This document shows positions 10,891 through 48,512 of a DNA stretch of 64,000 nt, piece after piece. The position numbers and the translations under genes were made by a program. Each line of letters begins with the position of its first letter. Within the stretch, counting starts at the first letter, position 1. The stretch is from Blasia pusilla (lineage: Eukaryota). Where the stretch lies: NCBI GenBank assembly GCA_050084515.1, contig CM114271.1, positions 15,562,001 through 15,626,000 of the forward strand. Reading direction: 5' to 3'. The notes under the pieces were generated by a model. It had not been told where the DNA came from. It searched no databases and worked only from the letters and a program-made list of their open reading frames with translations.

Positions 10891-11231
10891 GAGTGGCTGA
10901 GCAACATCGGATGAGATCACAACAGATCACAGCGGTTGTGTTGGTGAGCCCCATGCCTACCGAGACAATGGAGGCAGTGGCTGGGGGCGAGACCCGAGGA
11001 GATGGACACACCAGGGGAGATCGAGAGAGACACCCTTTGACTTCTTGGGATGTTTTGCAGGTACGCCAGGAGATGATAGCCACAACATCGAGCATGGTTC
11101 CAGGCACTGCATGTGGAGGAGATCAGAGTTTGAAGTTGGTTGCAGGAGAGCGGCCAAGTGTTGGTGTTTGAGACGGGATTGCACCATAGCAACCATCGAT
11201 ACCCGCCCCGGAGAGTCCTATCGTAGTCACG

Positions 11232-12660
11232 ATGGAGACTTGGGAGCCAGATATGGGCCCTAAGTTGACAGGAGAAGAGCGGCGCTGGATACATCAGTTC
11301 CTTAGGAGTTATAGGAGCTGCTTTGCGTTTAGCATGGAGGATTTGGATATTCTGAAGGGACTAGGGATCCGCATTGAGTTGTCGAGTGATACACCAATCT
11401 TCCGACGATCCTACACGTACAGTGATATGGAGAGGGCTTTGATTCAAAGTAGGACCCAGGACTTGGTTGGAGCAAGACTAGTGGAGATGTCGCATGGGGA
11501 GTATGCATCTGCCACTATCATGCTTGCCAAGAAGGATTTGCATGGCAACTCGACGGATAGGCGGATGTGTGGGGATTACCGGCCTGTCAATCGGCAGACA
11601 AAGTACGATAGGTATGCCATGCCCACTCTTGAGGAGATCTTTGATACAATTGATCACACAAAGATATTTAGTTCATTGGATTTGCGAGCCGGATACCATC
11701 AACTGCCTATCATATTGGAGGATAGGCAAAAGACGGCATTTTGGGGCATCGATCCTCATGGGAAGGATTATTTGTACCAGTGGCGGTTCTTACCATTTAG
11801 GTTAAAGAACGCCTCGGCTGAGTTTTAGAGGGTCATGGATAGGATCTTGGCAGGTCTGGATTTTGCTAGATGTTATATTGATGACATTGTTGTATTTAGT
11901 GCCACGGTTGAAGAGCATGAGCAACATCTAGAGGAGGTGTTCCGAAGATTGTAGTTACATGGGTTGAAGTCACATCCAGGCAAGTGTAAGTTCTTCTACG
12001 ACTAGATTGAGTACTTGGGTCATACGATGTACCTAGATGATCTTGTTGTTTAGTAGACGAAGGTAGAGGCTATTTCACGCATTCCACGCCCTATAGATGT
12101 GAGCTTTGTTCGTGCATTCATGGGATTGGCGAACTTCTATCGGCGGTACGTCAAGGGATTTAGTTTGATTGCGAAGCCACTGACCTTGCTGACCAAGGTG
12201 GATCATGAGTGGCATTGGGAGGATGAGCAAGAGCGAGCATTTCAGCTGCTCAAGGATAGATTGACGTCCGCGCCCATCTTGAGAAGACTGATCAGGGGGC
12301 ATCCTTTCTAGTTGCACACAGATTGGAGCATATTGGGGCTTGGAACGGTGCCCATCCAACATGATGATGAGGGTAGAGAGTTCGTGGTGGCTTACGCTAG
12401 CCGTTCAAACAACATTGCAGAGGCAAAGTACAGCTTGTATGAGGGTGAATGCTTGGCTACGGTATGGGCTGTCGCACATTTCAGGTGTTATTTATTCGGA
12501 AATCCACTGATCATCAACCACTAAAGTGGTTGATGAAGTCTGACAAGCTTACAAGGAAGCTTGCGAGATGGGCTCTGTTGTTGCAAGAGTACGATTTTCA
12601 AGTGGTACATAGACCTGGGACGCTCAACCAGGATGCAGATGGGCTAAGTCGTAACCCATG
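11232..12660 (+). pseudogene. Ty3/Gypsy reverse transcriptase plus RNase H
   Basis: RMCGDYRPVN, FSSLDLRAGYHQ, KTAF, LPFRLKNA, YIDD (11874-11885); RNase H HTDWS..GLG, VAYASR, EGECLA, TDHQPL. Confidence 0.95.
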
Positions 12661-12873
12661 CCCGAGTCAGCAAGATGTGATTGGAGCTCGATGGCATGGA
12701 GAGAATGATGAGGAGTCAGAGCTAGGATGGCACGCGTCAGCCTATTTAGGCTTGTTGGCTATGGAGAGCCAGAGTGTGGAGACTTTGATAGCGAGGTCTA
12801 ATTGAGAGTCCTTGGATCCTGAGGCCAGTAAAGAGACGACATCTGGCGAGATATTCACAACGATGAAGTAGTC

Positions 12874-13960
12874 TTGGAGAATCTGCGTACTGGCAGCGTT
12901 GCGAGCACAGTGGGTGCTAGAGAGCGGGATCGAGTCCTACAGCGAGCCAGACGGTTCCCCTCGGAGGGGACACATGTGTTGCAAGTATGGAAGGATGGTA
13001 GAGTCCGTGTAGTGCCTCATCCTTTGCAGAGAGCACGTTTGGTGCGTCATGCCCACAAGGAGTTGGGTCATTTTGGAGTGAAGCGGACATATAGCTTGCT
13101 CGAGATTCAGTATTGGTGGCAAGGCATGCAGATTGACGTTCAGGATTTTGTTGCCAGATGCATGGTGTGTGATCGAGTCCGAGCATCGTTCAATGCTCCA
13201 ACTCCACAGTTGCATCCACTTCCGATCATGGGTTTAGGTTAAAGATGGAGTTTGGATTTTGCAGGACCTTTGCCTTTGACGGAGCACCATAGTCGTTATA
13301 TGTTGGTGATGGTCGAGCACTTCTCGAAGTGGATAGAGTTGATTGCATTTCCTGACAAAGTGAGTGAGGGAGTAGCGTATGCCTTCCTAGATCAAGTGGT
13401 GAGTCATTACGGCGCACCAGCTGAGGTGTTGATAGACCAAGGTACAGAGTTCCGCGTGGAGTTTCAGACCTTGTGTGATGAGGCATTGATCGACCACCGC
13501 ACTACTTCGCGAGATCATCCTGAGGCGGATGGACTAGCGGAGCAGGTTTTGTAGATGATGAAGAGAGGACTACGCAAGTATGGCTTGCAAAGAGGTCACC
13601 TAGGAGATTGGGACCTTGAGTTGCCGTGGTTGGCGATGGGATACAGATTCAGCAGGCAAACATCCTTAGCGTCTTTCTCACCGTACTTGTTGCTTTATGG
13701 CCGTGAGCCAGATTTACCTATGGCCATTCTTTGAGATATTGGTGAGGTGTTGAACCTTGATGACCTTGATGTATGGATGCAAGCATGTTCTGAGAGGGCT
13801 GAGTTGTTTCAGAGAGTGATGCCCATGGGGTTTGTGAACTTGGCGATTGCACAATATTGGGATACGTTGAGGTATGCAACTATTTGAGGAGGTGGTTATC
13901 AACCTACTATCCGGAGGTTTCATCAGGGAGACTATGTCTACTTGTAGCAGACGACACCCA
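12874..13960 (+). pseudogene. DDE integrase
   Basis: HHCC zinc finger (HKELGHFG...CMVC); catalytic LDFAGP, DQGTEF and HPEADGLAE. Confidence 0.93.
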
Positions 13961-14151
13961 CGACGTTGGATGTGACTGCAGGGTGCACCATCTTGAGAGT
14001 GCGTGAGGTTTTGCCATCTGATGTTCTCTTATTAGAGGGACGCGATGGTATGGTTTGGAAGGACTATGTGCGTAACTGTATGCCATGTCATCTTCCGAAC
14101 ATTGACGGTACAGTTGATCCAAGCTTAGCAATAGTTCCTACAGGCTTGCCG

Positions 14152-14292
14152 TGTATGTTGTGTGGTTCCGCCCGTGGTGCAGCGACTATGCTAGTCTGTG
14201 ATGGGTGTTCGAGAGGATGGCATACGGCATGTTTGACGCCACCTCTCACTAGGGTTCCTCAGGGATGGTGTATGTGTCCCAGATGTACATAG
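14152..14292 (+). other. PHD finger at the integrase C-terminus (intact C4HC3)
   Basis: CMLCGSARGAATMLVCDGCSRGWHTACLTPPLTRVPQGWCMCPRC followed by the stop at 14290-14292. Confidence 0.92.
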
Positions 14293-15319: not shown

Positions 15320-17720
15320 TGTTTGGGGTTTCAATTATATGAGCATATACTTTGAAATTTTAATGTACGTTATTATTAGTTAGAATCTGATTCGGATACA
15401 ATATAATAATACCAACTTGAAGCCCAAGTGCATATTCTTGGAATCTTGGTTGAAGTTAAGAATATAAAACTGAATTTTGATAAAAAGATCTAGTTCATTT
15501 TGGGAGAAATGACCAAGGATTATTTTAGTTCCAAGTATAGTAACATTCTCTTAAAAGTTCTTAGAGTTGTCACAAGTTAAGCTAGACTAGAATACCAATT
15601 ATGAAACTAAATTCATTGAAGAAAAAAAACCTAAACTCAAATTTTATTAAAAGGTATAGTCAATTATTAAAGAATTGACATTAGACTTATTGAAGTTCAA
15701 AGTATATGGTCATTTTTTCTAATTTTCTTCAAGGTGTTACAATCTAAGATGGGGTCTAACACCAGGTTTGAGCATAAACACCAAGGTTGCATGACAATGA
15801 ACGAGGCCGGACATATCCACGGACATGGCAGGCTGAGGGCCCAAGGCGCGGGCCTTGAGTGGGCTTAAGGTTGTCCAATGGGGGCCCAACCCATCCTACG
15901 GGCCTCATTGTGGGCCATAAAATGGATGCGGGCTTGGCCAGGTTAGGTCTACGCGATGGGCTTATTAAAGACCAAGTTACAATCAAACTCATCAGACATC
16001 CAAACTGCTACATTTGGTACTCACACAAAGTAGGGTAGCTTAATCTTGGTTAGTCAGTTAAGCGCAATTATCTTAACTAGGGTTAGTTAATCATATTTAG
16101 TCTAACTCGAGACTATGGTTAAGATTAGGGTTAGGGTTGCTTGTACATATCCTATATAATTGAGAAGGGGACTAGACTCCACTCATTTTCTCATTGCAAA
16201 ATTTCGTTCTCCATGGTGGTGTGTGAGTGTGAGAGCCGTTTCCCACAAATTATACTTAAGCAGTTTTCTATAGGGTTGAGCGGGCGGGCTTAGGTGTGGG
16301 CCGTACGTACTCGAGCCGCACAGATATGTACGTCCCTACGATGGACATACGTCCCAAGACATGGACATTTCCGTGGACAAATTTTTTTGTATGCAACCCT
16401 GACGTAGGGCCCTTAGCCTACTATGCGAATACAGCCACGGGTGGTGCAGGTTGTGTGCGGGCCGGGCTCGATTAGCCCGGGTCTGCGCGATGGGCTGGGC
16501 GGGCTCAGGTGCAGGTATCCAAGCTTGCACGGACATGTCCGCAGATACATACTTTGTCCGTGTGCAACCTTGATAAATACCTAGTCTTGGTTAAAATTAA
16601 AAATTTTATTTTAGTTAATTACTCATAAATTATCAAAGAAAAAACCTTGAGGATTTTGGAGTTCAAATTGTATGGTCATATTATTCCAAAAATTTCTAAA
16701 AGGTGTCACAAGCTTAAACGGAGTAAAAATTTAAAATACCGAGTTTGAGCCCAAGGGCCTATTCTTTGTTGAAGTTTAAGTTCTGAAACTCAAATTTGAT
16801 TAAATAAAATAGTCTATAGTCGAAGAAATGACGATTGGGATTTTTAAGTATATGGTTATATTCTTTGAAGAACACCTAGTGATCTAAGTTCTATTCTTGG
16901 TTGAAGTTAAAATCTAGAACTCAAATTTGATTCAAAGGTCTAGTCAATTGTTGGAATGTTTGGAGGTCCGAGTATAGGATAGTATTATTTGAAATTTTGT
17001 GGAAGATTTTATAAGCTAAGATATGGTACAATACCAATTTTGAGCCATAATAGACATGTTTTGTTAAAGTAAAAAATCTAAAAATCAAATTTGATTAATC
17101 ATAAAAGTGTAAGAAAATAAAATGTGATGAAATCACTGAAATCTATTACAAATCTTGGAGATACAAAGTGGCCTAGTCCGTCCGTGCGCTCACAGAAGAG
17201 CTTTGATGAAACCTGAACATGGAGATAACTCGACATACGAGAATGTGCTACCGCTGCGGCTCCCGACTATTTCACTACTCTGGAAACTAGGATTTTCTAC
17301 CTATTTTTCTTCGTTTCTATTGATAGAAAATTTTTTCCGGGGGTTGCGCCCCCGAACCCCCGCGACGCATCAAGGTGCCTTGCACTTTGATGCAATATAG
17401 GATTAGATAATCCCAATAACGCTACTCCATAAACCATCTACGTCATATTACTATGACTCCTCCGACGTCTAAGTCGAAACCATCAATCTAAGCTTCTCCT
17501 CATACAAGGGGGCTGATCAGATTAATGATGCACACAGAAGTGGACGTTGAGAATCGAACAAAAAGGTCTAATCAATTGTTGGAGAATGTATGGTATTGAG
17601 ATTTTTGGAGTTCCAATTGTATAAATTTTTTTATTGAAATTCTACGGAAGGTCCGAAGGTGTGATAGGAAAAGATGGACTATAATACCAAGACAAAACCC
17701 AAATGGTTCAAGTTAAAATG
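15320..17720. repeat. Degenerate AT-rich tandem array (~170-190-bp unit, about 7 copies) interrupted by insertions
   Basis: Recurring blocks: TTGGTTGAAGTTAA, CTCAAATTTGATT, AAGGTCTAGTCAATT, GTATATGGTCATATT, AATACCAATTTGAGCC. Confidence 0.65.
15782..16572. mobile_element. hAT-type MITE
   Basis: TIRs CAAGGTTGCA/TGCAACCTTG; 8-bp TSD ATAAACAC/ATAAATAC; an internal extra terminus near 16399. Confidence 0.8.
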
Positions 17721-18493: not shown

Positions 18494-19860
18494 ATGGATG
18501 ATTGGAGAGAAGAAATGAATGCAAGGCTCAACGATTCAGATGAAGACCAGATGGAATTCAAATTTATGCAGCAAACAACCCGGGTACTAGCTTCTTTGTT
18601 GACAGGACCTGCTAACCATGGTGGTTCACGACCTTGCAAGGCTGCAAATGTGAACCGACAGAGAGAGGTAGGCCATGAGTGGATCTTTCGAGACTATTTC
18701 TGCCCACATTCATGAGTTTATGGGAACATTTTTTCCAGAAGACGGTTCCGCATGAGGAGGTCATTGTTCCTACAAATCATGAACAAGGTCTGTTCACACG
18801 ACAAGTACTTTGTTCAAAAGAGAGATGCAAGTGGGAGTTTAGGCTTGTTGCCCATTCAAAAATGCACTACAGCAATAAGAATGTTAGCTTATGGCATAGC
18901 AGCAGATGCAACAGACGAGTATTGTAGGATTGGGGAGTCCACAACTATGGAATCTATGAAACGATTTTGCATTGCCATCAAGGAAATTTATGAACCCTTC
19001 TATCTTTGGCAACCAACTCGGGAGGACATTGAGAGACATATGGAAATCAATGAACGTAGAGGGTGGCCAGGAATGTTCGGTTCATTGGATTGCAAGCACT
19101 ACACTTGGAAAAATTTTCCTCTTTCTTGGCATGATCAATTCAACAATAAGGATGGAGACAACAAAATTGTGCTTGAGGCTGTGTGTGACCAATCCCTGAA
19201 CTTTTGGCATGCACACGTTGGGATTCTCGGTTGAAATAACAACATTACTGTGTTGGATTCCAACACAGTAATGTCCTTATTTCAACCAACACAGCTTGGT
19301 GGGAAGCAACAAATTTGTTGCTTCCCACCAAGTCCTCTCATTGAAAATTTCTTAAGACAGGATATTGATTACCTTTCATTTACTGTCAATGCAATGGAAC
19401 TACTTAACCAAGGTACTATTTGTTAACTGATGGCATTTACCCAAGGTACTCCATCTTTTTTCAAACTATTCATGAGCCACAAATAGAGAAGTTTTCCTAT
19501 ATTGCAAAGAAGCAAGAGAGTGCTAGAAAAGATGTGGAGAGGGCATTTGGAGTGCTACAAGCCAAATTTGCAATGATTTCAAACCCCTTTAGGATGTGGG
19601 ATGCAGTACAAGCCGGTGAAGAACATTTGGATGGCCTATGTTTTATTGCACAATCTGATCATTGAAGACGAGAAAGACATGAATTTGGAACCTTTGTTTG
19701 ATTCCATTCCTCAACTAGGAATTTTTCGAGGGTTAACTTTTCAGTATTTGATGGAAGGCGTGATGGAGATCATGGATGAGGGAGCCCATATAGTTTGATA
19801 AATGACTTAATTGAGCACCTATGGGACCGTAGAGGTATGCTTGAAGGAGACGACGAGTAG
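18494..19860 (+). pseudogene. PIF/Harbinger DDE transposase
   Basis: FRMRRSLF, QKCTTAIRMLAYG, GMFGSLDCKH, LTDGIYP, RKDVERAFGVLQ; stops and frameshifts. Confidence 0.92.
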
Positions 19861-23278: not shown

Positions 23279-24699
23279 TCAGATCAAACCCACGACAATG
23301 GCGATGACGAGAGTTGACGCCAGCAGCAGCCCCGAGGCCGATGGAAGAATCGTGATCCCAGCGCTTTCGATCGGGAAGATGTCGGGAAGTTGACACTCGT
23401 CCCCGTTGAACCACACCCGCTTGGGAAATCCATCTCCACCGGTGACATTGATCCCGGGTATCAACCTCTTGTTGAAGGACATGATGGACTGGACCTTACC
23501 TGGAGTGATGCCTCCCTCCAAACCGAGCAAGTAATCGTTGTAGCTTTTCTTCCCCTTCATGAACACGAGGTCCATCTGCTTATTGTCGATGAGCGTGGTG
23601 ACCTCGCTCCCGTTAAAGCTGTAGACATCCTGGTAGCCCGCCAAGGCCTTGCCCAAGTCCAAAGCGAGGAACCAGTCCGCCACCGCTTCCGCTTCCCAAT
23701 TGAAAAGCGTGATTCGGGTACTATATCCCTTGGCGAAATCAGAGTAGATGTGCCAGTTGATGGTCACGCCGCAATTGTCCGGGCAGGGCAAAGGATTCGG
23801 GATGTTGAATTTATCGATCCTGGCCAGCTCCAACGCCAATGCGGTGCGGTTGGAGGGCGGGAGGAGAAGACCGTATGTAGGTAGGAGCATGGACTCTGCG
23901 TTGGGGTCACACGTCGGGTTGGCCTTCTTGCAGTCGCCGCAAGCACAGCTCGGGCATGGAACGACGGAGCTGTTGTAAAACCCAGAAAAGGATACGCAAC
24001 ACTTGCGAGGTGTACTCGGGTCAGGAAGCGTCTGGTTGCAAGTCACCTGCCAGGTGATAGCAGCGGAACTGTAATGGAGGCCTGGATCAGGCCCCCATTC
24101 AGATGGAGCCACGAGTCTCGGTAAACCACAAGTGTAAGTCGATGCACCCTTGTTGAGATCACCGATTCTCCAGTTGGCAGGAGGGTCGACCTTGGTTTTA
24201 CCCTTCTGAAGTCGCCCCTTCTGAACGTCGAGGGTGAACACGGACTTAGTCATAGCAGGAGCGATTATCTTCGGCAGAAGGGATCCGTTCCGACAGCAGA
24301 AAGGCACCGCCATGTCCCCGTTAGACGCGAACTCCAGCGAAAGATCTACGATGGTTGGCGTTTTCTGACAACTCATAGCTGATGAGAAATCCGCTCCGGG
24401 ATTCAGTTCTGCTTGCGGGCCGTTCAAGCACTGCTCCTGGTCCTGCTCTAGTGTTTGGGCGCCCTTCATTCCCTGGATGTACTCGTCATACAACCAGTCC
24501 CACGTCAAGTTCCAGTGGTCGATCCTGCCGATCTCTTGATCGAGAGAAATCGTTACCTGTGCGGTGTATTGCTGATCAAATGTCTTCACTACGTCGTAGT
24601 ACATTGTGATGTCTCCTTTCTCCCGTGGTAGCCACTTTTTGCTCGCGGAATCTGCCAGATCGGTAGAGTTCTCCTTGCAGCAGACGACCATCGTGACGT
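23279..24699 (-). CDS. COBL: COBRA-like protein (COBL7 subgroup), exon 2 of 2
   Basis: LPREKGDITMYYDV, PTIVDL, CCRNGSLLP, CCVS motif (KCCVSFSGFYN), PCPDNCGVTINWH, GDGFPKRVWFNGDEC, hydrophobic GPI-signal C-terminus. The AG acceptor (24701-24700) is phase 1, matching exon 1. Confidence 0.93.
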
Positions 24700-25175
24700 C
24701 TAATACATCACGGGTGAATATTAGGCGCACTCGTATATACTGTAACGGGGAATGGACGGTACTCAAGGTGCACGAAATAAGCGCATACGAGACAACTCAA
24801 TCGTAAAATTCCCGCATGGACATAAAACGGCAACGACAAGAATATGGAGCCCCTACTGAAATCCTTTCTCGTTGCACGATACCCTCGCTTTCAACTCGAT
24901 TGGTCGGGAAGGACTTCGTGATATTCATTTTGTTTTGCACGTCTTCACGAGCAGATCCCCGAAGTTCCCAAGGCCGCGCGAAATCAAAGAAACTCCCTCC
25001 CACTCATTACGACCATAACTCATACTCCAAATTCTTTCGTGTGCATGACAAGAACGTTAAACGGTTGCTGTAAATTGAATTTCGATTAAGGAAGTCCCAT
25101 TTCACGTACACTGAACGATCACCTAGCCTCTTCACACAAGGATAAAGGATCTCATACAAGCAGAAGAGCACTTAC

Positions 25176-25848
25176 TGGCTTCAATCGCCGGCTTGCTGCA
25201 GTCATAGCCAGTGTTCGTGAGGGAGATATTCTTTGGAAGAGGTATGTCAATCGGCTGCCCTGGACCCACTCCAAACTCGGTTCCTGTGATTTGGTATTTT
25301 ACTTGAATTAACTGAAAGTCCTCGGCTGTATCGATGGAGGTCAGCAAATCCGGATTGTCCGTACCGGTCAGAGTGGTTCCATTTCCCACCAATGCACCGG
25401 GCAGGATTTGACTTCCGTCACCTATTACCACTCCTGGAGCCTCAGCAATCACTTCACCATGTTGGAACCCGATATAGAGTTCCCAATTACGCAGCTCAGA
25501 GTAACCCGCGTTGGTGAGCGTTCCAGAGGCTTCAAATTTGTAGGGTTGGGTCGCATTGATGAGAGAAATTGGAAGAATTCGCTGGAGGGACTTCCCGGTA
25601 GTATACGTAAGAACTACTCCCTTACAAGTATAGAGATATTGCAAATGCAGCGGCAGTGCTGAAATGTTTGTACCGTATGGAAGCGCGGCATGCACTACGG
25701 TCATCAGAAAGCACCAGGAAGCACAGAGGATGAGTCTGTTCCATGCTCCTACTTGCTTCATGGTGGACAGCCGCACCGAGCTCCTCTGCCGTCCCAGGAC
25801 TACCGCCATCACCTTTCTATGACAACCTATCTCTCTCGTCACATTCAC
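25176..25848 (-). CDS. COBL: COBRA-like protein, exon 1 of 2 (start may be 25848, 25809 or 25761)
   Basis: Signal-peptide-like segment, CKGVVLTY, QPYKFEA, WELYIGFQHGE, DLLTSIDTAED, GTEFGV. The GTAAGT donor after 25176 joins exon 2 in frame (IEA-N-VTM). Confidence 0.9.
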
Positions 25849-27233
25849 AAATTCAAATCTTCATAGCCGGAACTCGCATCTCCCTAAATTCTCATGTCTC
25901 GGGACTCCTAGCGCTTAAGTTGGTGGTGCTGATCTGAGATGCTTAGACTGCCGCTTTGTGCCGAGAGACACTGACGTTGTAGCCACCCAATTTCCGGTCT
26001 TCTGTGGGGTGACAGGCACAGAGATGGAGGCAAAGGATGGTACAATGGTACCAGCGTAATCTCCGATCGAGATCCACCATTTTAAGTACGCTGTTCTCCT
26101 CCGATAATTGCACTGCAAATCCTGCTGTTCTCCTTTCTGCGTGCGTAAGCCTCCCACGTTCTCTCCACAACTGCCCATTTTTCTCCTTCGACCGTGGCCC
26201 TAACTTTCCATCACTGTGAGACTTTCACCAAACTGTCATTCATTCACCTCCTTGTCCCAAACCTGCGCACTTTCCTCTCCACTGTTCCACAAACTCATAT
26301 TCTCAGTCAGTTACTGTCACTGTTCCGAATCAACCCGTTCCCTCGTTTCCCACCTGCCTGGACATCCTCTCCTTACCGCCCCGATCTTCTCTTACTCCAG
26401 CTGTGTGCGCCGCACAATTCCTCACGTCCGCCTCCCTTCAATCGACCACCTGGTCTCGACTCCCACACGCTTCCCTACTCGCCGTGCCCTTCACCCCGGT
26501 CAGACTAAACTGGTTGACGACGGGCTCCCATCGTGATCGCCATGACGGCGCAGGCCACCCTGTTCTTACGGCATAAACTCTTACGGCATCCATAGCTACG
26601 ACATCCATAGAGGGGTTTTCCCAAGCTCTCCCGTGTCCTTTCGTGCCCCGGGGCCCATGATTCATCCGACCGGTTTTCTTGCGTGATTGTAGCCAGTAGA
26701 CTTGCCCTGAAAGGTACAGGTCATCCCGGCGAGCTGTTAGCCATCGTGGCTTTTCAAAGGAGCGACGGCGGCTCCCGTAGGAGACGCTGCTGCAGAAGGA
26801 CGTTTCATAGTACACGCTACGAGAGCCATGGGAATTGTCAAGCTCTCGCTTTAGGGCTATTTGGGACAGAATGCGTCCTTGCAATAGGGTCTCACTGACC
26901 CTCTAAGGGACGTAACCCGGAGTTATGGTGAAGGGGGGTTGAAACAAAGGTTGTTGTTTTGTTGCAAGAGGGACAAAAGAAGGCGAAAGAAAAAAGGGGG
27001 CTTACCCCATACAAATTGAGCTCACTGATAGGAGAGACAATATCGATGAAGTCTAGTGAAAGACAACTAGCGTTAAGAAAGCTTCCAACAATGGTGTCTC
27101 CCGCAGCTTGAGCCAGCCTCAAAAGCCCATAGGCTTGGGCATGCTGCCAAGCTATGGAGACCCATTAGCTACAATGAAGAACATTAGTAGCTAAAGTGTC
27201 GCGCCCCTACTCTCCTTGAACGTCAATCTTTAA

Positions 27234-39100: not shown

Positions 39101-39938
39101 GGTGGTGTGGCACCAAACTACGGCGGCATAGGCAGCAGGAAACCCGGCAGTCAACAATCGAGTCTGGAAACTACTTAAAACACCCCCTCCAACTTAGGGT
39201 CCGCCATCCTCACTTTGCTCCAAAACCTAAAATCGTGCTGACATATCCCCTTACAAATAGAGTCAACTCACTAAACATAACTTTTTTACTCACTTCTCTT
39301 CCAAGTGACAAGCCCACTTATCTGGTCCACTAGAACACATAAAGTTTTACTTTTCTTCCTCTCCAATAAGGATTTTACCAAAGGAAATTTCAAATTTCAC
39401 TCACACGGTAGCACGGTGGCTATGGCAGCTTGCTCAATCAGCCACAACTTTGTGCTCCAAACTCAGAATCGTGCAGTGTTTCTTCAGCAGCATACACAAC
39501 TTCCCGATCTATGACTTCCTCCATAGGAAACCAAACCCACTCTCCTAATGAGAGGTTTGGTTTATACACACAAGGCAAGGAGGACCATAGCTCCGTCGCC
39601 TCATGCTAAGAGGTTCAACAAAGAGAGAATGAGCTCTCAAGCTCTCTCTCTTGGAGGTATATGCCCTTCCGTCTCCCAAACTCTCTTCTCGGTAACCTAT
39701 GCTTGCAAGTCACCTCCTTGGCTCTTGATCTGCTGTAGTGGGTCAAGGGCCACTTCCCAAAATAGTAACTTTCTTTATATGGCTCCAAATGAGCCGAAAC
39801 AAAGGGGAAACCTGCTCTCTCAGGTGACCCGTGGCCTCAACATGTCATCCTAGACCTATTGAGGCTATCCTCGAGTATCTCCGAAGGCGCTCTACTAGAT
39901 GATCTAGATCTTGCCGATCGATCCTAAAAATCGTGATA
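33176..39938 (-). mobile_element. DNMT-carrying Ty3/Gypsy retrotransposon, copy 2 (both termini, internally deleted)
   Basis: 4-bp TSD TATC (33172-33175, 39939-39942). B2 33176-33303, A2 33304-33812, B1 33815-33942, A1 about 39527-39938. Protease and DNMT are retained; gag, RT, RNase H and integrase carry large deletions. Confidence 0.93.
35290..36215 (-). pseudogene. C5 cytosine DNA methyltransferase domain (copy 2)
   Basis: MLDLFEGISTG (motif I); VIDGWPCQGQS (PCQ 35941-35933); DSRSRLFWEMMRIL; YILENVP (35815-35807); LDPVSVGSRAYRMRL*WTNL; EREQGMGFP; SRRHVLGQAIDL. Confidence 0.92.
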
Positions 39939-40110
39939 TATCCGTGGCATTTATTTGGGAAAAAATTGTGATTCATGCTTAGTCTAGCAGAAAGCACATT
40001 CAGATGCATTCTCATTTAATTGGAAAGAAATTATTTTAAATTAAAAATATTGATTGTATTTGATAGTTCAATTAATAGTTCTTATATCTTCAAAGGGTTA
40101 AGTTTTGAAA
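39939..40110 (+). pseudogene. Ty1/Copia RNase H remnant, 3' part
   Basis: Joined to 33175 across the TSD it reads YGDNIRGIYLGKN...RKHIQMHSHLIGKK (compare YCDNxSAIxLAKNP...TKHIEVHYHFIREK). Confidence 0.8.
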
Positions 40111-41005: not shown

Positions 41006-41314
41006 TTTTCATGAACAAACCAATAAGCCTTGAGCCCGCCCTAGCCCGTTGGACCGAAAGATGGTCTGCCAGATCAAATTTTGCGTGCCTTGAGCCCGCA
41101 TACGGGCCCATGGCGGGCCTCGAGCCCGTACCCAGTGCCTGCGTCGAGCCCGCCCTAGGTCGGGCTGTGATCCATGCATGTGCAACGGCTACGTGCGGGT
41201 TCGGGCGGGCCCTAGGTACTTGGGTCCGCACGGACATGTCCATCCATAGGATGTACATAAGTCCACGGCCATGGATATATCCACGGGCACGGTCTTTGTC
41301 CGTGTGCAACCTTG
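41006..41314. mobile_element. hAT-type MITE, left end eroded
   Basis: Right terminus GTCCGTGTGCAACCTTG and the same GC-rich GGGCCC/GAGCCCG internal motifs as the other copies. Confidence 0.7.
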
Positions 41315-41716
41315 ATACCTAAGGGTGGTAAAATTTTGCCTCTCTACGGGGATGGTAATGGGTTGTGAAGGTTTACCATCCCATGTAAATAGACCCATAT
41401 CCAAGGGTGGTAACATGCAAACCATTTCTACTAATGTCGGATTCTTGGTCAATAAGTGAGATCTTATCCATCCACACGTCACTCTAACTGACTCACTAGC
41501 ATACATCTCTTGCAATAAACATTGAACTGGATAAATTTTTTGTTGTAGAAAATTAATGTTGGATCTGACCAACCTCGTCATTTGGCCTCTCAAAAGAGGT
41601 TTCACAATTTTTGGATGTTATGCAATTAGTTATTTTTTTTGGAAAATAATGAAATTCAAGCAACATCGTGAAAATTTGGCAGAGTATGCTTTTTTAAACA
41701 TTGTTCCAATTATCCA

Positions 41717-43680
41717 ATGACAGATACTCAGACTGCTACAAAGAAGATCTATAAAAGTTGCTGGATCAATCCAACTATAGTTTTGTTGGAAATCAAATGC
41801 TTCATCTACCTTAAAGAAGATCTGAACAATAGTAGCTACATAAGAAGGGAGATCGGCCAACTTCCCATGGAGAATATGAAGGTGTGGCTCTTTGAAAATC
41901 CTTACATCCTCATAGTGTCATTTTTGTTATGGTTCATCGTGTTTATTACGCTTCAATGGAACAATGGGATCTCTCCAAAGCTCACACATGTAAGTTTCAT
42001 ATTCTTGAAGGAGACCATGCTGCAAGGGCAACAGATAGGCATAGTGGTCGTGTATACAGGTCTATAAAATAAGGAGAATAAAACCTTGGTCTAGGAATTG
42101 ACTAGAAATATAGGAATAACATAACAACTATCACCAAGAAAGAAGGGCTTCTTCATCAAACACCAAGAAATCCACTCTCCTCAATTGAGGGATAAATGTG
42201 GGCCGGAGTGCAGATTGGTATATTGGATTCTGGAAATAGGAAAGGCATTCAGAGGCATACCCCCCTCTTTCAGGTTGCTTTTTGTCTTGAAGAAGTTTGG
42301 AGGTTTTCGAACCAGATCTCGTCAATGTATGTGAAGGTTGGAACTCCTTGGCCAAAAGAAAATTCCTCTTGAGAAAATTTCAAAGAAGGAAATCAAATCT
42401 AAACTTCATCCAATGCTAAATAAGGTTTGAGAGGATTTGAAGTTGAATGATTGGAATGCACTTCAAGTTATAAAGGATGATACAATCCTTGGTAAGGGTT
42501 GTAAAAGAAAATTTCTCAATTCACCAAATGGCCATTGATGCGGAGAATCTCCTTAAAATTAGTCCATTATTCATTAATATAGCTTTAGTCGATGAGTGGG
42601 ATGCATGCAAGGAGACCTACATCGAGGAGACGAAGGAAGAAATGTTGGAGCCTTTCATTCTTGTGCTCAAGGTTTAGGTAATATTTCTTTTCATGCCACA
42701 ACCTTTGATTAATTTCCAAGTTCTTTTGTTATTTTTTGAAAACTTCCAAGAATTTCAAAGTGGTGGGTTCCATGAGTGCTCCAAAATTGGATTGGTTGCA
42801 AGACTCTTCAAGTAGCTCATCACTTCTAAGAGTATCTCAAATGTAATCAGTTGCATGACTTATCATGCGACTAATTACTTCTAGGAGTGTTTGAAATGAG
42901 TTTGGTTCCATAAGTGCTTACGCAATTGATCACTTCTAAAAGTATCTGAAATATGATTGGTTGCACTATCACATGACGAAACATACGGCCAGAGCTCCCT
43001 TCTAAAAAAAAGATCTTTTTGAGATTGCTAATGTTCCCTACTAACTTAAGGATCAAGAGTTGAAAACGACTATCCTCCCTTCTCAAAACAAGATATTTTT
43101 GAGATGATCGAAAGTTTCAAGCACACTACAACAAGTAAGGTTTGGAGGTTTGTCATTTGTCTTGCAATGGAGCAAGAAATTTTTTATGAAGCCAAATATA
43201 AAGAACCAAATCTCAAGGAATCGTTTGGCATTCTCTTTTGAAATGTGAACAATCGGTTACCATCTTATCTGAGTAGAAAGAACCTCGGACCTACACATTG
43301 CTGAACCTTTTGAGAGCCACTATAATGTTGAGTTTGCAGAAGTAGTGACAAAAAAATATACATATCTAGAAAATTACATAGTTAACCCTTATCAAAAGCA
43401 AGTCAAAGCTATGATTTGGTTTATGTCTCATTTCTCACATGTGGGAGATTGGGTGATCAATCTATGTGTAGGTATTGGTACGACTACTGTAGTGTTATTA
43501 TACCAAGGTAGAGATTGTTGTAAGGTAGGGATAAGTCAACAACAAGTTGATTTTATCCAACAGAGAATTACAAGAATGCCACTTAAGTTTAAGGATGAAG
43601 TGGACCATGGCTACTCTTGTGCTTTTGGGATAGACAAACCAATTGAATTTGCTCAAATTGAGATTTTTGTAGTTGAGTGA
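41717..43680 (+). pseudogene. Decayed ParB-like plus beta-class amino-DNA-methyltransferase (N6A/N4C, N6_N4_Mtase-like)
   Basis: ILEGDHAARA (42001-42030, ParB/Srx-like GxH); IANVPY (NVPY 43030-43041, motif IV D/N-x-P-Y); NPYQKQV (from 43384, compare HPTQKP); GDWVINLCVGIGTTTVV..GRDCCKVGISQQQVDFIQQR (compare GDxVLDPFxGSGTT..GRxxIGxE). Confidence 0.72.
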
Positions 43681-44399
43681 AAGGAAGAAAAGGAAGAAGA
43701 TCCTGCTAAAGAATAGAATATGGAGGAAGAAGAAGCAGCTAATATATAGAGACATGATGTTAGCTTAGATCTATGAATATTCCACTTATCAAATAACAGT
43801 GCAATTTCTCCAACCTGACATATTCTTGTATTTTTTTGTCTTTTCTCTTGTAATTATACTTTTCTTTATTCCTTATGTATCAAAGTGATTGATCGTAGGA
43901 CAATATGCATACAACAAATCTAATTGGTCAAAGGACAGAAAGTTTTAGGAGAAAAGTTGGAGGTTCGTTGTACAAATTTTGATTCGTTGTACGATAAAAC
44001 ACTTAAACAATGCTAGGAGTCCACCTACCTTAAACCTACAACTAATCCACCATAGGAAACAATACTGCATGCAATAAATCTAATTGGTCAAAGGACAAAA
44101 CTTGTGATTTATATTAGAAGAAAAGGTGGACAATTCTTATACAAAATATGATTGATCGTATGAAAAAACATTTAGCAAAGGTAAGAATCTACACACCTTG
44201 AACCCAAATCGCATTGGTCATAGGATTTAAATTATTTCCTCAAGACCAAACAAGTTTAGATATCTAACTCCTTAATTTTGTGTTTCTAAAGACATTTTTA
44301 TCAACTTAATTTCTCTTCTTTTCAAATTGTTTAAGAGAAAATTATAGGCAAACATATGTTTCTCTCCTACATCCAATCTATCCTTCTTCTCCTTCCTAG

Positions 44400-46214
44400 A
44401 AAATCTATTCATGAATTTTGGAAAATAAAAACTTGTAATAGTTTCCCCTATTATATTTAACCATATTATGGAAAGGTTCTTTGAGAACCCATTTACCTTA
44501 GAAAGAATCTTATCTATTTACACCAACCAAAACACTCTTCATATAGGATCTTCTTCAATTGCCACTACAATCATTGTGGATTCTTCAAGGTCGGAGAGAT
44601 TGCCCAAACTATCAACTTGTTTTCTTTGAGGAATAGTGTCCATCAACTGGAAAGGTCCCCAACTCTCTCAATTCTAATGTCTCATGATCAAATGTAATTG
44701 GGCTTGCCATGTGTTGGATTGGAATACTCTGATGTACATGAGAGGAACTTGAATGCCATTCCCACAATTTAGACCACGTTTGCGATAAAAAACGATCACT
44801 TAAGATCTCTCGTTGATTCCAAAAATAAAATCTGCCCGCCATCCTTTTGAAAATCTTCAGAATAGACATTCCCAACGTCAATTTCTTTTGTGTTGTCCTT
44901 TAAAATCCAAGAAAGAAAGGCGACCTTGTAGACAATTGCTTCCCCCATATGAATGTAGCACCATCTTCAACTTTATGGATTCGAAATTGCCTTTGGAAAG
45001 TGCATCTTGTAGATCTTTGATTGGAGAAGTTGTCAAAATACTTCTTTCTCCACTAAGATATTTAGATATGCAAGTAGATATTTTCTCAAATAGTTTTGCC
45101 AATCTCCAAGTAGAGGACCACAACGAACATTTCCTTTCCATTCTTTGATAATATTATGTAGAATTGTCATGGTCAAATTCGTATTATTATACATGTTGGG
45201 GTAGTTCAAAAAAACCCTAAATAATGACTCTTTGGTGAAGATAAGACAACTTGCCATATGAATGGATATGAATACCTCTCATTCATATTTTTTGGAGTGC
45301 AAATGAAATGAGGAAGTTCGGTTTTCTTCTGGTCCATCCTATTGCTACTTTCCAATGAGGTGAAACACTTATTGTGATACTTTGCAAATTTCTCCCTCTT
45401 TCATTTGTTGATTTTGTTATGTAGCTTATACAAACATGTTATTTTTTGTGAAAAAATTTAGGAAGTTTTCAGACTTTCACTCAATCCCAATCTTCAAACA
45501 AAGTGTGAAAATTGAACACTTTCGATCTCTAACTTATAACTTAGAGTGATCATGATCGATCATAGGACTCTTTTTCCAAATTATATTTATATCAGTGCTA
45601 TAGCTCAAAATTAGTCGTTGAAGCACTATTGTGAATAAAGTATCATACGGCTAATCACATTTTGTTTTAATTCTCTACGCTCATGACTTAGAGTGAGAAA
45701 TCATATGACTTAATCTTGTAAAATGTGTCCTACAACCGATCATTTAACAACACTAAATTATATTTTGTGAATAAATAAATGTTTTGATTTGTTTCTAATG
45801 ACCATTTATGTTTCCCTCCATGTTATAGTCCAACAATGATTGATCATAGAACAAGTCTATTCCATAATTTACTCTGATATCATAATTGAAAGCGTTAAGT
45901 TTGAAGGGCCAAAACATACCTCTTTCAAAAGGTAATATTTCTTGATCGCGCAACGTCTTGAACTCAACACATGTTGAACATGTCGACATACAATTCCACT
46001 TTGGAATTTTCAAATGATAGAATTCTTTCCTCTTTAATCTCACAAAAGAGGAAAACAAAAAAATATTTTTGGCGTGTAATATTTCAACTTTTGCTCCATA
46101 CAACAAGAAAATTTCCTTGTTTGTATAATTATCTAGAAAATGAAAGAAATTCTTGTTAGGAAGTTGTTCCATGTGTCTCTTAAAGAAATTAGAACACCAT
46201 TCCAATGCGAGCAA
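44400..46214 (-). pseudogene. Decayed Sola-like DDE transposase
   Basis: HLKIPKWNCMSTCSTCVEF, MDQKKTELPHF (about 45310-45340), NTNLTMTILHNII. Superfamily call is from remembered motifs only. Confidence 0.5.
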
Positions 46215-47109
46215 TTATGATACTTTTGAACATATATAATAGTGTTTGTTTCAAATTTTGCGGCAGTAAACCAAATAGAGGTCGGTCATTTTGTGAGAGA
46301 AGGTTTTTGAGCTACTTGCAAACAATTTATGATTTAGCATTTATCCTTTAGTCATTTCTCTCCTTCCCCTCCATCTCTTGTTGCCACACATGATCTCAAA
46401 AGTGATCGGTCATAGGATTTTTCTCTCCTACCTACATATAAAGAAAGCTAAGATAAACCTAAAATTGATTGGTGATTAGAGCTTACAACCAAGATGCGTA
46501 CGCCTCCTTTGGAACTCTTTCTTGACAATTCTCCCTAGAGTGATTGGTTGTGGGATATTTGGGGTGGAAAACTTTGTGGTACTTGCAAATGATCATACCT
46601 CTCTCCAAATTTCTCTCTTTTATTCAAACAAACTACTTGTCATTTAAATAATGGTTTTATCACAGATATCGAAACAAATTTGACACTTAAGGCTTCATTT
46701 TTTCTACGTAAAATATGGTTGGATGATAATTTTTTTGGACAATCGGAAAATTGGTAGAGTTGCATTCAAAAGTTAATGAAGCGTTCAAAGAAATAGTAGA
46801 CATCTCTATATAATATTCTATAATTTGAAGACTAGTTCCTTTCTACCCTCCAGATGACGCGTGCAAAATGACGCCTAGAGTTGAGTATTTATATTCTATT
46901 TATGTTCACAAATAAATTCCATGACGTATGGCTAGCTATCATTTTTACATTATTCCTAAAATTTACTTATGAGGTAAGCCTATGTATTTCCAAACTATGT
47001 TCTAAAATACATTTATATCTAAATTCTCTATTGTAAGGTTTTATTTTTCTATGGCATATCACTTTACATCTAGAATCTTAGTTACTTACAATTTCTTAGT
47101 TGTTTAGTT

Positions 47110-47330
47110 GCATATGATCCATAACTTTCCGTCTACAATAAGAGTTCTCTTACACCAAAAAGTTTAAAACCATCCTACTTTCCATCTTCAATTGGAATTT
47201 TTAATGTGGGAATTTTTAAAAGTATCCTATGACTAATCACTTTCCGTCTTTAATTGGATTTTTTAAAGATGCAAAGTTTTAGAATATCCCATAACAAACC
47301 TTTTTGTCTATAATTGGAAAATTTTGCACT
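47110..47330. repeat. Degenerate ~55-60-bp tandem repeat, possibly subterminal
   Basis: About 4 copies of ATCCYATRAC...TTTCCGTCT..AATTGGA. Confidence 0.5.
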
Positions 47331-48179
47331 TAAAGCTATGGACTTCGTTATCTTACAATTTTAAATACATTGTCAAATCCCAATTGAATGTTGTATTGAA
47401 CCGCTTTTTGGAGTAAATTACTAGTATGTCATAAAATGTCAATATAATATATTTTACCTCATTTTTTTATTAACCATATATTTATTAATTATGGTGTTGA
47501 GAAATTGCAATGCACTCCAATTAGCTAATTTGGTTCAAAGTTTATTCATTGATTATGCATTACCTTGATTGGATCAACTACTATGGTTAAAAAACCTAAT
47601 CCCGGTTGAAATTTTTTTAAATGGTTTCAATTATTTTGATTACCAGAAATTCCTACTTTCAACTCGTACTTTAATTTGCATATAGCCTCAAAATTATGGC
47701 AAGTAGTACCATAATTAAATGATTTCATCACTAAAATAAGTTAGGGAAAAATACCTATGTTGAATTTGTGGTCAATTTCACTACTTTTGAGAGACTCGAT
47801 TGGTAAGATTCAATGTTTATCTAGCTTTGTTCTAAAATTGAAGTTCATAGACACATCCTAGTTCATGGTTGGATGAATCTAGTCATTTTCTTTGTGGTGA
47901 AGGGTTTAGGGTTAAATATCTTGCCAATGGGTTCTCCCATTCAAGTTAAGATTGAAGGATTCATAATTATTTAGAGTCTAAGGTTAAGGTTATGACAAAA
48001 CCATGAATTTTATAGTTCAACATATTACCTCTTAAATACCACTCCCTAGATTGGGGCGAGAGTTAACCCCAAACTGACCATCACATCCGTTATATAGATG
48101 TGGCCCAAGTATGTTGGGCCCATGCTTATCTCTAGGATCTGAGATGGGCTTTTGTCGCTCCGTCCTCTCCCCACCCTTT

Positions 48180-48512
48180 CAAGGTTGCACACAAAAAATG
48201 TCCATACAGGCACAAGCACGTACGGCCCGTACACCAGCCCTCCCCACCCGCAATGTACACCTAGGTTCAACCAACACGCACCTAATCTAAGAACCCGTTG
48301 CCCCTTCTTTAGTGCACCCTAAGCCCGCATTGGCCCACGGTAGGCCCATAGCCCCGCCCTCCGCGGGCTTAGGGCGAGCCGATTCCTACCCATCTCCCTT
48401 AATTTGATCCCGCACCCATTCCCACATACCGACCTTGTACACACCACGAGGATACCATTTTACCAAACAAATCCGGGGGCTTTTTGGGCATGTCCGTTTC
48501 CATGTAACCATG
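48180..48512. mobile_element. hAT-type MITE
   Basis: CAAGGTTGCACAC / CATGTAACCATG termini; flanks CACCCTTT / CCCCCCTTT resemble a degraded TSD. Confidence 0.7.

Follow-up and report, generated by a model that had tools for sequence, protein, structure and literature searches.

Does the AT-rich, decayed DNA at 41.8-46.2 kb of a 64,000-nucleotide stretch of the Blasia pusilla genome (contig CM114271.1; hereafter the window) hold the remains of a DNA transposon that carried a DNA methylase gene? A sequence-only reading of this locus had proposed a prokaryote-like gene, made of a ParB domain and an amino-methyltransferase, as cargo of a cut-and-paste transposon whose transposase remnant lies convergent to it. 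Our analysis indicates that the region is probably what is left, in a plant genome, of an inactivated mobile element with two genes, a ParB-methylase gene on the forward strand and a gene of the DUF7869 family, tail to tail with it, on the reverse strand. Three contigs (L002, L004 and L005) carry intact relatives of this gene pair, which is little known. L-numbers denote fetched contig loci, P-numbers denote relative proteins, and coordinates are those of the window. The features concerned are the following.

About 41843-43680, + strand: remnant of the whole forward-strand gene, with ParB-like, helical middle and methylase parts in colinear order
41843-42066, + strand: remnant of the ParB/sulfiredoxin-like N-terminal domain, in three frame segments, with a stop after VVVYTGL
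42125-42671, + strand: remnant of the helical middle domain, ParB-helix-turn-helix (HTH)-like, and linker, with three frame changes and one in-frame stop
42784-42965, between middle and methylase domains: 55-bp unit in three tandem copies, 67-71% alike (repeat search, blastn self-match)
43006-43680, + strand: methylase-domain pseudogene, with IANVPY at 43024-43041, NPYQK at 43384 and GDWVINLCVGIGTT at 43444
43681-44331, no strand: spacer between the convergent pseudogenes, with five copies of ATYGRTCRWAGGA and a 147-bp direct duplication
44332-46214, - strand: pseudogene of DUF7869, a putative DDD transposase (Pfam, tblastn with P0067, 58-member profile)
43888-47237, no strand: cluster of ten copies of ATYGRTCRWAGGA (at most one mismatch), extended form RTGATYGRTCRTAGGAC (motif count)

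A decayed member of a eukaryotic methylase family

On the forward strand, a single reading frame holds ILEGDH (42001), IANVPY (43024), NPYQK (43384) and GDWVINL (43444), with many stops between them. The order that had been proposed, IANVPY followed by NPYQK and then by the S-adenosylmethionine (SAM)-binding block, was confirmed on this strand; with IANVPY N-terminal to the SAM-binding GDWVINLCVGIGTT, it corresponds to the permuted order of beta-class enzymes. Such motifs establish nothing by themselves, and it is the relatives of the gene that raise the assignment above chance. A phmmer search of 1.84 billion representatives with the 135-aa open reading frame (ORF) at 43273-43677 recovered 58 relatives at E<=1e-3, including 11 at E<=1e-10, the best one at E 1.1e-19 with 48% identity. 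When a profile built from 13 relatives was run against the 3629 six-frame fragments of the window, this ORF scored E 4e-33 and the adjacent fragment 43050-43238 scored E 4e-9, the 12-residue fragment with IANVPY being too short to be scored alone. IANVPY can nevertheless be placed as the putative motif IV, since it sits directly before the aligned stretch and fits the family motif (A/V)DIPYG.

Among 34 relatives scanned, 31 match the Pfam N6_N4_Mtase family (PF01555) and 28 reach its curated cut-off; no match was obtained for P0010 (a repetitive artefact), P0027 and P0042. The only solved structures found by the family profile were beta-class amino-methyltransferases (CcrM, 1.4e-9; 2zie, 1.9e-9; RsrI; MboIIA; DpnA), and the bdelloid N4CMT (PDB 8s9m) scored 1.5e-5, which is weaker than CcrM and RsrI (1e-9 to 4e-8). 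The family shows motif IV as (A/V)-D-(I/V/A)-P-(Y/H), and later NPYQKP and GDWVLDLCxGSGTT, in permuted beta order. The methylase reading was thereby upheld, the window gene being a decayed member of a eukaryotic PF01555-type amino-methyltransferase family, with named members in Ginkgo biloba, Adiantum nelumboides, Riccia sorocarpa and Riccia fluitans. At least five paralogues, 58-95% identical, were found in Ginkgo biloba. Many loci contain short introns of spliceosomal type at conserved places, and relatives carry acidic low-complexity tails. The word prokaryote-like thus holds for the domain order, which is that of phage ParB-methylases, and for the methylase core, but not for the family, which is eukaryotic and often contains introns. 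The gene had been called a second methylase; no other methylase domain was found among the 137 window open frames of at least 85 residues (Pfam, E<=1e-3; interrupted or shorter frames lay outside the survey).

The window copy is heavily damaged. A stop directly follows IANVPY, a frameshift leads to the piece at 43050-43238, and a further frameshift leads to 43189-43677, which contains NPYQK and the SAM block. The methylase domain has two in-frame stops, one of them at the conserved Trp of the family (FEM*TIGY vs YETWTIGY), and a deletion has removed about 15 residues after motif IV. Over the whole forward-strand gene, which also contains the 55-bp x 3 minisatellite, the pieces are joined by eight frame switches, of which at least six are too close together for introns.

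An AT-rich lineage with conserved introns was seen in L009, L011, L013, L020, L022, L024, L026, L028, L031, L037 and L041, with one intron after ...EEMxxEFxK and one within the SAM-binding GSGTT, between GSG and TT. Several diverged copies occur per assembly, some of them truncated (L022 is without the ParB domain). P0188 of Adiantum nelumboides (720 aa) combines a region that looks integrase-like by eye, a ParB-like fragment and a full methylase with the motif DAPY, and is probably a chimeric gene model in a transposon-rich region.

A ParB-like fold upstream of the methylase

In 35 of the 81 fetched loci, the methylase is preceded on its own strand by a conserved N-terminal domain, with the successive stretches IRxPHxLHVxNLK, YNYYVIGGxHSAEARRQL and GLTxxEAKLLAWDHN. 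In Ginkgo, gene models fuse the methylase to a long N-terminal region, and from these models the ParB and methylase parts would also be fused as one protein in the clade of the window gene. The profile of this domain was searched against all six-frame window fragments, and its three best hits were colinear: 41923-42033, which contains ILEGDH (E 2e-3), 42208-42345 (1.6e-5) and 42431-42493 (6e-3). Profile positions 36-72 matched at E 2e-3 and positions 9-37 weakly (E 2.4). ILEGDH itself (42001-42018) aligns with the family motif VIGG(S/N/C)HS, and pieces of the middle domain are recognised as FQVAF..EVW (42268-42330), DWNALQ (about 42440-42460) and LVRVV..SIHQMA (42477-42551).

An AlphaFold2 model was made of the domain from L004, a DUF7869-linked contig (269 residues, 13-row alignment), and gave a pLDDT of 71 and a pTM of 0.52. 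Foldseek searches with this model returned ParB, Noc, Spo0J and KorB proteins at all ranks to about 22, the best at E 3e-4. At the level of the fold, the upstream domain is predicted to be ParB/Noc/sulfiredoxin-like, with a ParB-type helical DNA-binding domain after the ParB/sulfiredoxin fold. The ILEGDH piece, read earlier as ParB-like, aligns to a domain whose L004 model folds in this way, while a sequence-profile match to PF02195, which had been suggested as a check, was not obtained for the N-terminal ORFs, the ParB likeness coming from the fold. Of the 26 ORFs scanned, those of the N-terminal region had no match to ParB_N of Pfam and matched DUF6551 alone (E 0.009-0.03), and PDB searches with this region, either as single sequence or as profile, gave no ParB match, the profile returning 0 hits. 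When hhalign was run against the bacterial or phage ParB-methylase of L081, the methylase part alone was aligned, not the ParB part. In the Atlas ranking, a ParB_N cluster came 17th (0.90), which we treated as a lead only. The window appears to keep the whole ParB-like/helical/methylase architecture, from about 41843 to 43680.

The convergent DUF7869 pseudogene

The neighbouring remnant, which had been described as a convergent transposase, was found again at 44332-46214 (-), as a DUF7869 pseudogene. Its intact relative P0067, a 672-residue open frame on the minus strand of L005, scores 169 bits against Pfam DUF7869, and by tblastn its residues 1-96, 140-282 and 545-647 correspond to 46202-45912, 45439-45036 and 44628-44332, respectively. 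A 58-member DUF7869 profile detected five colinear window fragments (E 1.6e-17, 6.5e-15, 1e-7, 2.6e-4 and 0.024). Most of the centre, including GHTHDxIDQ, is missing or unrecognisable, and the pseudogene is interrupted by four in-frame stops and changes frame at least three times. With frameshifts, stops and deletions in both, neither window gene can be functional. When the 139-aa minus-strand ORF was used in a word-based search for longer homologous proteins, none was found.

DUF7869 has 154 relatives at E<=1e-5, and the 120 relatives listed include dozens of Riccia sorocarpa paralogues on several contigs as well as proteins of Adiantum, Chara braunii, the cnidarian Clytia, two sea urchins and an oyster. 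Across the 58 members, D258 (in QLDNTxRENKN) and D300 (in GHTHDxIDQ) are invariant and D180 is nearly so, the spacings being 78 and 42 residues. Such a dispersal and such an acidic triad are, in our judgement, typical of DDE/D transposases, and we infer from the copy number, the patchy distribution and the D-D-D pattern that DUF7869 may be a transposase of this type.

DUF7869 was also met in the prokaryote genome scan, on 12 contigs labelled as metagenome-assembled genomes (MAGs), eleven of 2.5-17 kb and one of 589 kb, which are probably mis-binned eukaryotic DNA. At three loci with bacterial-MAG labels and a GC content of 0.53-0.55 (L085, 1-6150; L086, 1-5691; L090, 52-5568), the DUF7869 domain lies inside open frames of about 1800-2050 residues. 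Either these contigs are eukaryotic DNA that was mis-binned, or the long frames represent an unusual fusion.

The same gene pair, intact, in related contigs

On L002, L004 and L005, an intact methylase ORF, of 377 aa in L002, is followed, tail to tail, by an intact DUF7869 ORF after a spacer of about 0.3-0.6 kb, which is the order found in the window. The three DUF7869 copies share 70-83% mutual identity. These loci are all the clade contigs with at least 0.9 kb downstream of the methylase, as L003, L012 and L014 end too early. In a methylase tree of 68 rows and 130 columns, whose resolution is weak, the window ORF falls in a 15-row clade with the linked contigs (SH-aLRT 92). For both window genes, identity to their clade relatives is about 33-49% (DUF7869 compared with P0067, the methylase with P0005 and P0006), and this similar divergence suggests an old joint descent. 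In Riccia sorocarpa, the methylase genes R1sor_003565 and R1sor_017671 are separated by 5 and 13 locus tags, respectively, from the DUF7869 genes R1sor_003570 and R1sor_017684, a proximity that we treat as a lead.

The sequence-only reading was to be abandoned if no methylase match was found or if the homologues were never linked to the transposase. The recurrent tail-to-tail pair speaks to the second point, the homologues being linked to DUF7869 in three contigs, and a match to the methylase family was found through the relatives. The transposon-cargo reading is therefore borne out as to the pair, which recurs intact on three contigs of the same clade, and not as to shared ends, while the transposase role is a deduction of ours. 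Within these bounds, the methylase as cargo of a DUF7869 element is supported.

Points against the element and alternative explanations

Several observations weigh against a two-gene transposon with a methylase, and some of them concern the genes themselves. The ORF at 43273-43677 scores only 12.6 bits (E 0.13) against PF01555, whose cut-off is 26.7, so that its assignment rests on its relatives, by transitive homology; the PF01555 match that had been called for is thus missing directly and present through the relatives. The fragment at 45036-45278 (-) reaches 21.1 bits (E 2.6e-4) against Pfam DUF7869 (PF25273), for a cut-off of 26, and no known transposase family was matched by DUF7869 in PDB sequence and profile searches, in Pfam (58 members) or in NCBIfam (10 members). 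The sulfiredoxin motif is GGCHR, and the family has GG(S/N/C)H(S/G) in its ParB-like domain. With D-(I/V/A)-P-(Y/H), the family also departs from the canonical motif IV, (D/S)-P-P-(Y/F), which leaves its catalytic activity putative, and in the window motif IV is N-V-P-Y followed by a stop, a further point where activity is concerned.

Other points concern the linkage. L002, L004 and L005 all come from one metagenome and may be copies within one genome, and the independent observations therefore number two, that organism and the window. Outside the clade, 21 methylase loci have 1 kb or more of downstream sequence, and none of them carries DUF7869; nor does any of 12 further DUF7869 loci, on MAG-labelled contigs, carry a methylase or a ParB-like domain within 3 kb. 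The flanks of 18 methylase loci (148 ORFs) held no recurrent partner beyond plant retroelement pieces; outside the clade, they contain such pieces, one DUF4218 fragment and one SDR gene, and the intron-bearing methylase lineage sits among plant genes and retroelements. The loci without the partner and the surroundings of the intron-bearing lineage, together with the lack of shared ends in the window, are what would be expected if the two genes were chance neighbours, a host ParB-methylase gene, ordinary or domesticated, having decayed beside an unrelated DUF7869 remnant. We consider this improbable. Chance adjacency is unlikely because the gene order recurs, with a similarly short spacer and with intact ORFs, and the window methylase groups with exactly the clade of the three linked contigs; the comparable divergence of the two window genes from their clade relatives also argues against it. 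The linkage is clade-specific, and the methylase appears to be accessory to a single DUF7869 lineage rather than a constant partner.

Neither the ends of an element nor younger copies were recovered. There was no convincing terminal inverted repeat (TIR) or target site duplication (TSD) in 39-50 kb, shared ends around both genes having been suggested as a test, and when contigs of three DNA runs of the same organism were compared at >=80% likeness, their depth over 41.6-49 kb was as low as over the unique flanks. An inverted repeat, 41291-41315 / 48179-48203 (25 nt, 80%, 14-nt exact core), brackets the AT-rich block of about 41.3-48.2 kb; it was rejected as a pair of ends, its core being near chance by our own estimate and its left arm lying in an unrelated repeat.

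In the main open alternative, the pair is truly linked but is not a cut-and-paste transposon, DUF7869 being something other than a transposase or the pair being a module of a larger element (Maverick/virus-like or giant). The missing TIR and TSD, the lack of any detectable relation of DUF7869 to known transposases and the very long frames of L085, L086 and L090 all fit it, and the pair-bearing contigs, only 3-5 kb long, leave the rest of the element out of view. Against it stand the dozens of dispersed DUF7869 paralogues in one liverwort, the patchy spread over streptophytes, cnidarians, echinoderms and molluscs, and the three conserved acidic positions; for a larger element of viral type, the window also contains no viral hallmark genes, and the viral contig collection gave one weak match. 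We regard this explanation as unlikely, and a cut-and-paste element remains our preferred reading.

An endogenous giant-virus fragment, a phage-like insertion or a bacterial contamination bringing a ParB-methylase was considered as well. Fusions of ParB with a methylase are characteristic of phages in the available text of Iyer et al. 2016 (PMC4738411); one bacterial or phage fusion was present among the fetched loci (L081), and 804 phage records match the C-terminal methylase core, the best listed at E 6e-8. In the 25 rows listed, the phage matches cover 12-22% of the protein and lie entirely in the methylase part, whereas the N-terminal domain was not found by a pattern scan of 185,579 prokaryote species genomes. 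The single match in the viral contig collection was to a plain methylase, the relatives have spliceosomal-type introns and acidic low-complexity tails, and the relic in the window, decayed and AT-rich, has plant genes and plant transposons around it. Such an origin is hardly credible.

Repeats within and beside the relic

The direct duplication in the spacer consists of 43900-44036 and 44059-44204, 73% alike. The motif ATYGRTCRWAGGA has no copy elsewhere in the 64 kb than in its cluster, for an expectation of 1.25 copies, and none of 100 shuffles reached ten. Its copies have unrelated flanks and lie outside all DUF7869 and methylase matches, and four of them contain GATC; the motif is absent from the 81 fetched loci. 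We read these sites as non-coding parts of the element, and they could be candidate binding sites.

A short repeat (41216-41311, ending ...GTCCGTGTGCAACC) occupies the left edge of the AT-rich block; its read-contig depth of about 55 makes it moderately repeated. It has an 84% copy on the other strand at 31894-31799 and a 24-nt exact match at 16552-16575. A single contig of the X6 run, with a 53-nt side and 80% likeness, joins 41314 to 48394, and was rejected as an empty site because the copy of the left repeat at 31894-31799 does not continue into the right flank.

A proposed mechanism

Homology, domain folds, gene order and decay are what the relic and its relatives display, and a mechanism can be proposed on this ground for the intact element. 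The forward-strand product would comprise a ParB/sulfiredoxin-like domain, a ParB-type helical DNA-binding domain and a permuted beta-class amino-methyltransferase. The gene placed tail to tail with it (46214-44332) would encode, as DUF7869, the DDD-type transposase of the element, and this protein would move the intact element, a common set of ends presumably serving both genes. The ParB/HTH part would guide the methylase to DNA, most plausibly to that of the element itself, and the methylase, presumably active in its intact forms, would put a methyl group on an exocyclic amino group. As the first residue of motif IV is Asp (D-I/V/A-P-Y/H) and not Ser, N6 of adenine is a more likely target than N4 of cytosine. 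Methylation might shield the element from host silencing or time its transposition, which is speculation. Dam-regulated IS10 offers an analogy for methylation-timed transposition. For the methylation of an element, an analogy is provided by the phage ParB-methylases, as far as the available text of PMC4738411 describes them.

On a wider and tentative reading, to which we would give somewhat less than an even chance, the relic would belong to a so far undescribed lineage of eukaryotic DNA transposons, which inhabits non-flowering plants and may extend to other hosts. It would combine a DUF7869 transposase of DDD type with a ParB/HTH-guided methylase that writes N6-methyladenine (6mA) or N4-methylcytosine (4mC) on the element's own DNA, and would be a possible source of domesticated host base-modification enzymes.

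Relation to known systems

The closest arrangement is that of the ParB-methyltransferase fusions of phages and prophages (ParB_N with N6_N4_Mtase, and ParB-terminase loci), which, in the available text of Iyer et al. 2016 (PMC4738411), have the same order, ParB first and permuted methylase second. Their methylase core is homologous to the one described here (hhalign probability of 95% for L081; best listed phage tblastn match at E 6e-8). Unlike them, the present family is eukaryotic and often contains introns, has a conserved helical middle domain and an acidic tail, and shows no sequence match of its ParB part to ParB_N, a motif IV of the form D-(I/V/A)-P-(Y/H) and, in one clade, pairing with a DUF7869 gene.

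MpDN4MT1a/b of Marchantia (bioRxiv 10.1101/2021.02.12.428880) and the bdelloid N4CMT (PMC8885841) are also, from what is available of these sources, permuted PF01555-type enzymes of eukaryotic nuclear genomes, and the present family shares the liverwort occurrence, in Riccia, with MpDN4MT1. N4CMT is described in the accessible part of its report as a host gene with a chromodomain, and is said there to be without eukaryotic homologues (Rodriguez et al., PMC8885841). The available portions of both reports mention neither a ParB domain nor a linkage to a transposase for MpDN4MT1 (bioRxiv 10.1101/2021.02.12.428880) or N4CMT (PMC8885841). Motif IV of MpDN4MT1 is given as TSPPY in the available text (bioRxiv 10.1101/2021.02.12.428880), whereas the present family has D-x-P-Y, initiated by Asn in the window, and does not show the Ser-initiated motif of 4mC type. 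As far as motif IV indicates, the present family is a different lineage from MpDN4MT1.

Fungal transposons with TET/JBP genes were reportedly described by Iyer et al. in 2014. KDZ-type elements are likewise DNA transposons in which the gene of a base-modification enzyme lies beside that of the transposase, but they differ in carrying a 5-methylcytosine (5mC) oxidase instead of a methyl writer, in their transposase family and in their hosts. The part of PMC12730594 at hand attributes TET/JBP dioxygenase genes to KDZ and other fungal transposons.

In the available text of PMC4738411, chlorophytes and chytrids have Dam methylases of chlorophyte type joined to a ParB-type HTH, and the methylase domain of the DIRS1 retrotransposon is predicted to be inactive and lies in a retroelement polyprotein. 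These proteins are likewise eukaryotic and adenine-methylase-like, and occur with ParB-derived DNA-binding modules or in mobile elements, but belong to another methylase group (M.EcoKI/TaqI-like, unpermuted). No plant clade such as the present one is listed in the accessible portion of Iyer et al. (PMC4738411). A search of full-text literature, Repbase and subscription journals being outside it, found no account of DUF7869, nor of any plant or animal transposon with a ParB-methylase.

Surroundings of the relic

A Pfam survey identified plant DNA in the window, in the form of a COBRA gene, a Ty3 element and PIF/Harbinger fragments, and the relic is flanked by such plant genes and transposons. 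The neighbouring features are as follows.

11190-14289: Ty3-type long terminal repeat (LTR) retrotransposon, with reverse transcriptase, RNase H, and integrase zinc-binding and core domains
13948-14289: PHD-finger ORF, after the Ty3 element domains
18716-19662: PIF/Harbinger-type transposase in two fragments (Pfam Plant_tran, E 1e-20 and 1e-23)
23282-24796, - strand: COBRA-family gene, apparently intact (COBRA, E 1e-43; COB_C, E 1e-74)
25135-25860, - strand: second long open frame, upstream of the COBRA gene and on the same strand
39367-40100: very high-copy repeat, with a summed contig depth of 1e4-2e5 in three DNA runs, compared with about 1-5 nearby, and with many variant letters and loose ends in read contigs of the same organism

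What the relic may mean

DNA methylation other than 5mC is contested in plants and animals, and the few accepted eukaryotic writers of 4mC or 6mA are treated as rare, single acquisitions from bacteria. The PF01555-type family described here, with its ParB-like targeting module, spans liverworts, ferns and Ginkgo, and in one clade it is paired with a multicopy putative transposase. The dead Blasia locus is valuable as a pointer to intact relatives in other plants and in metagenome contigs, and DUF7869, a large family whose function is unassigned, would gain a testable role. If the self-marking reading is true, the element would be a eukaryotic counterpart of the self-marking of phage ParB-methylases or of Dam-timed transposition. 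Should the enzymes prove active, amino-methylation would have in mobile elements a means of spreading into eukaryotic genomes.

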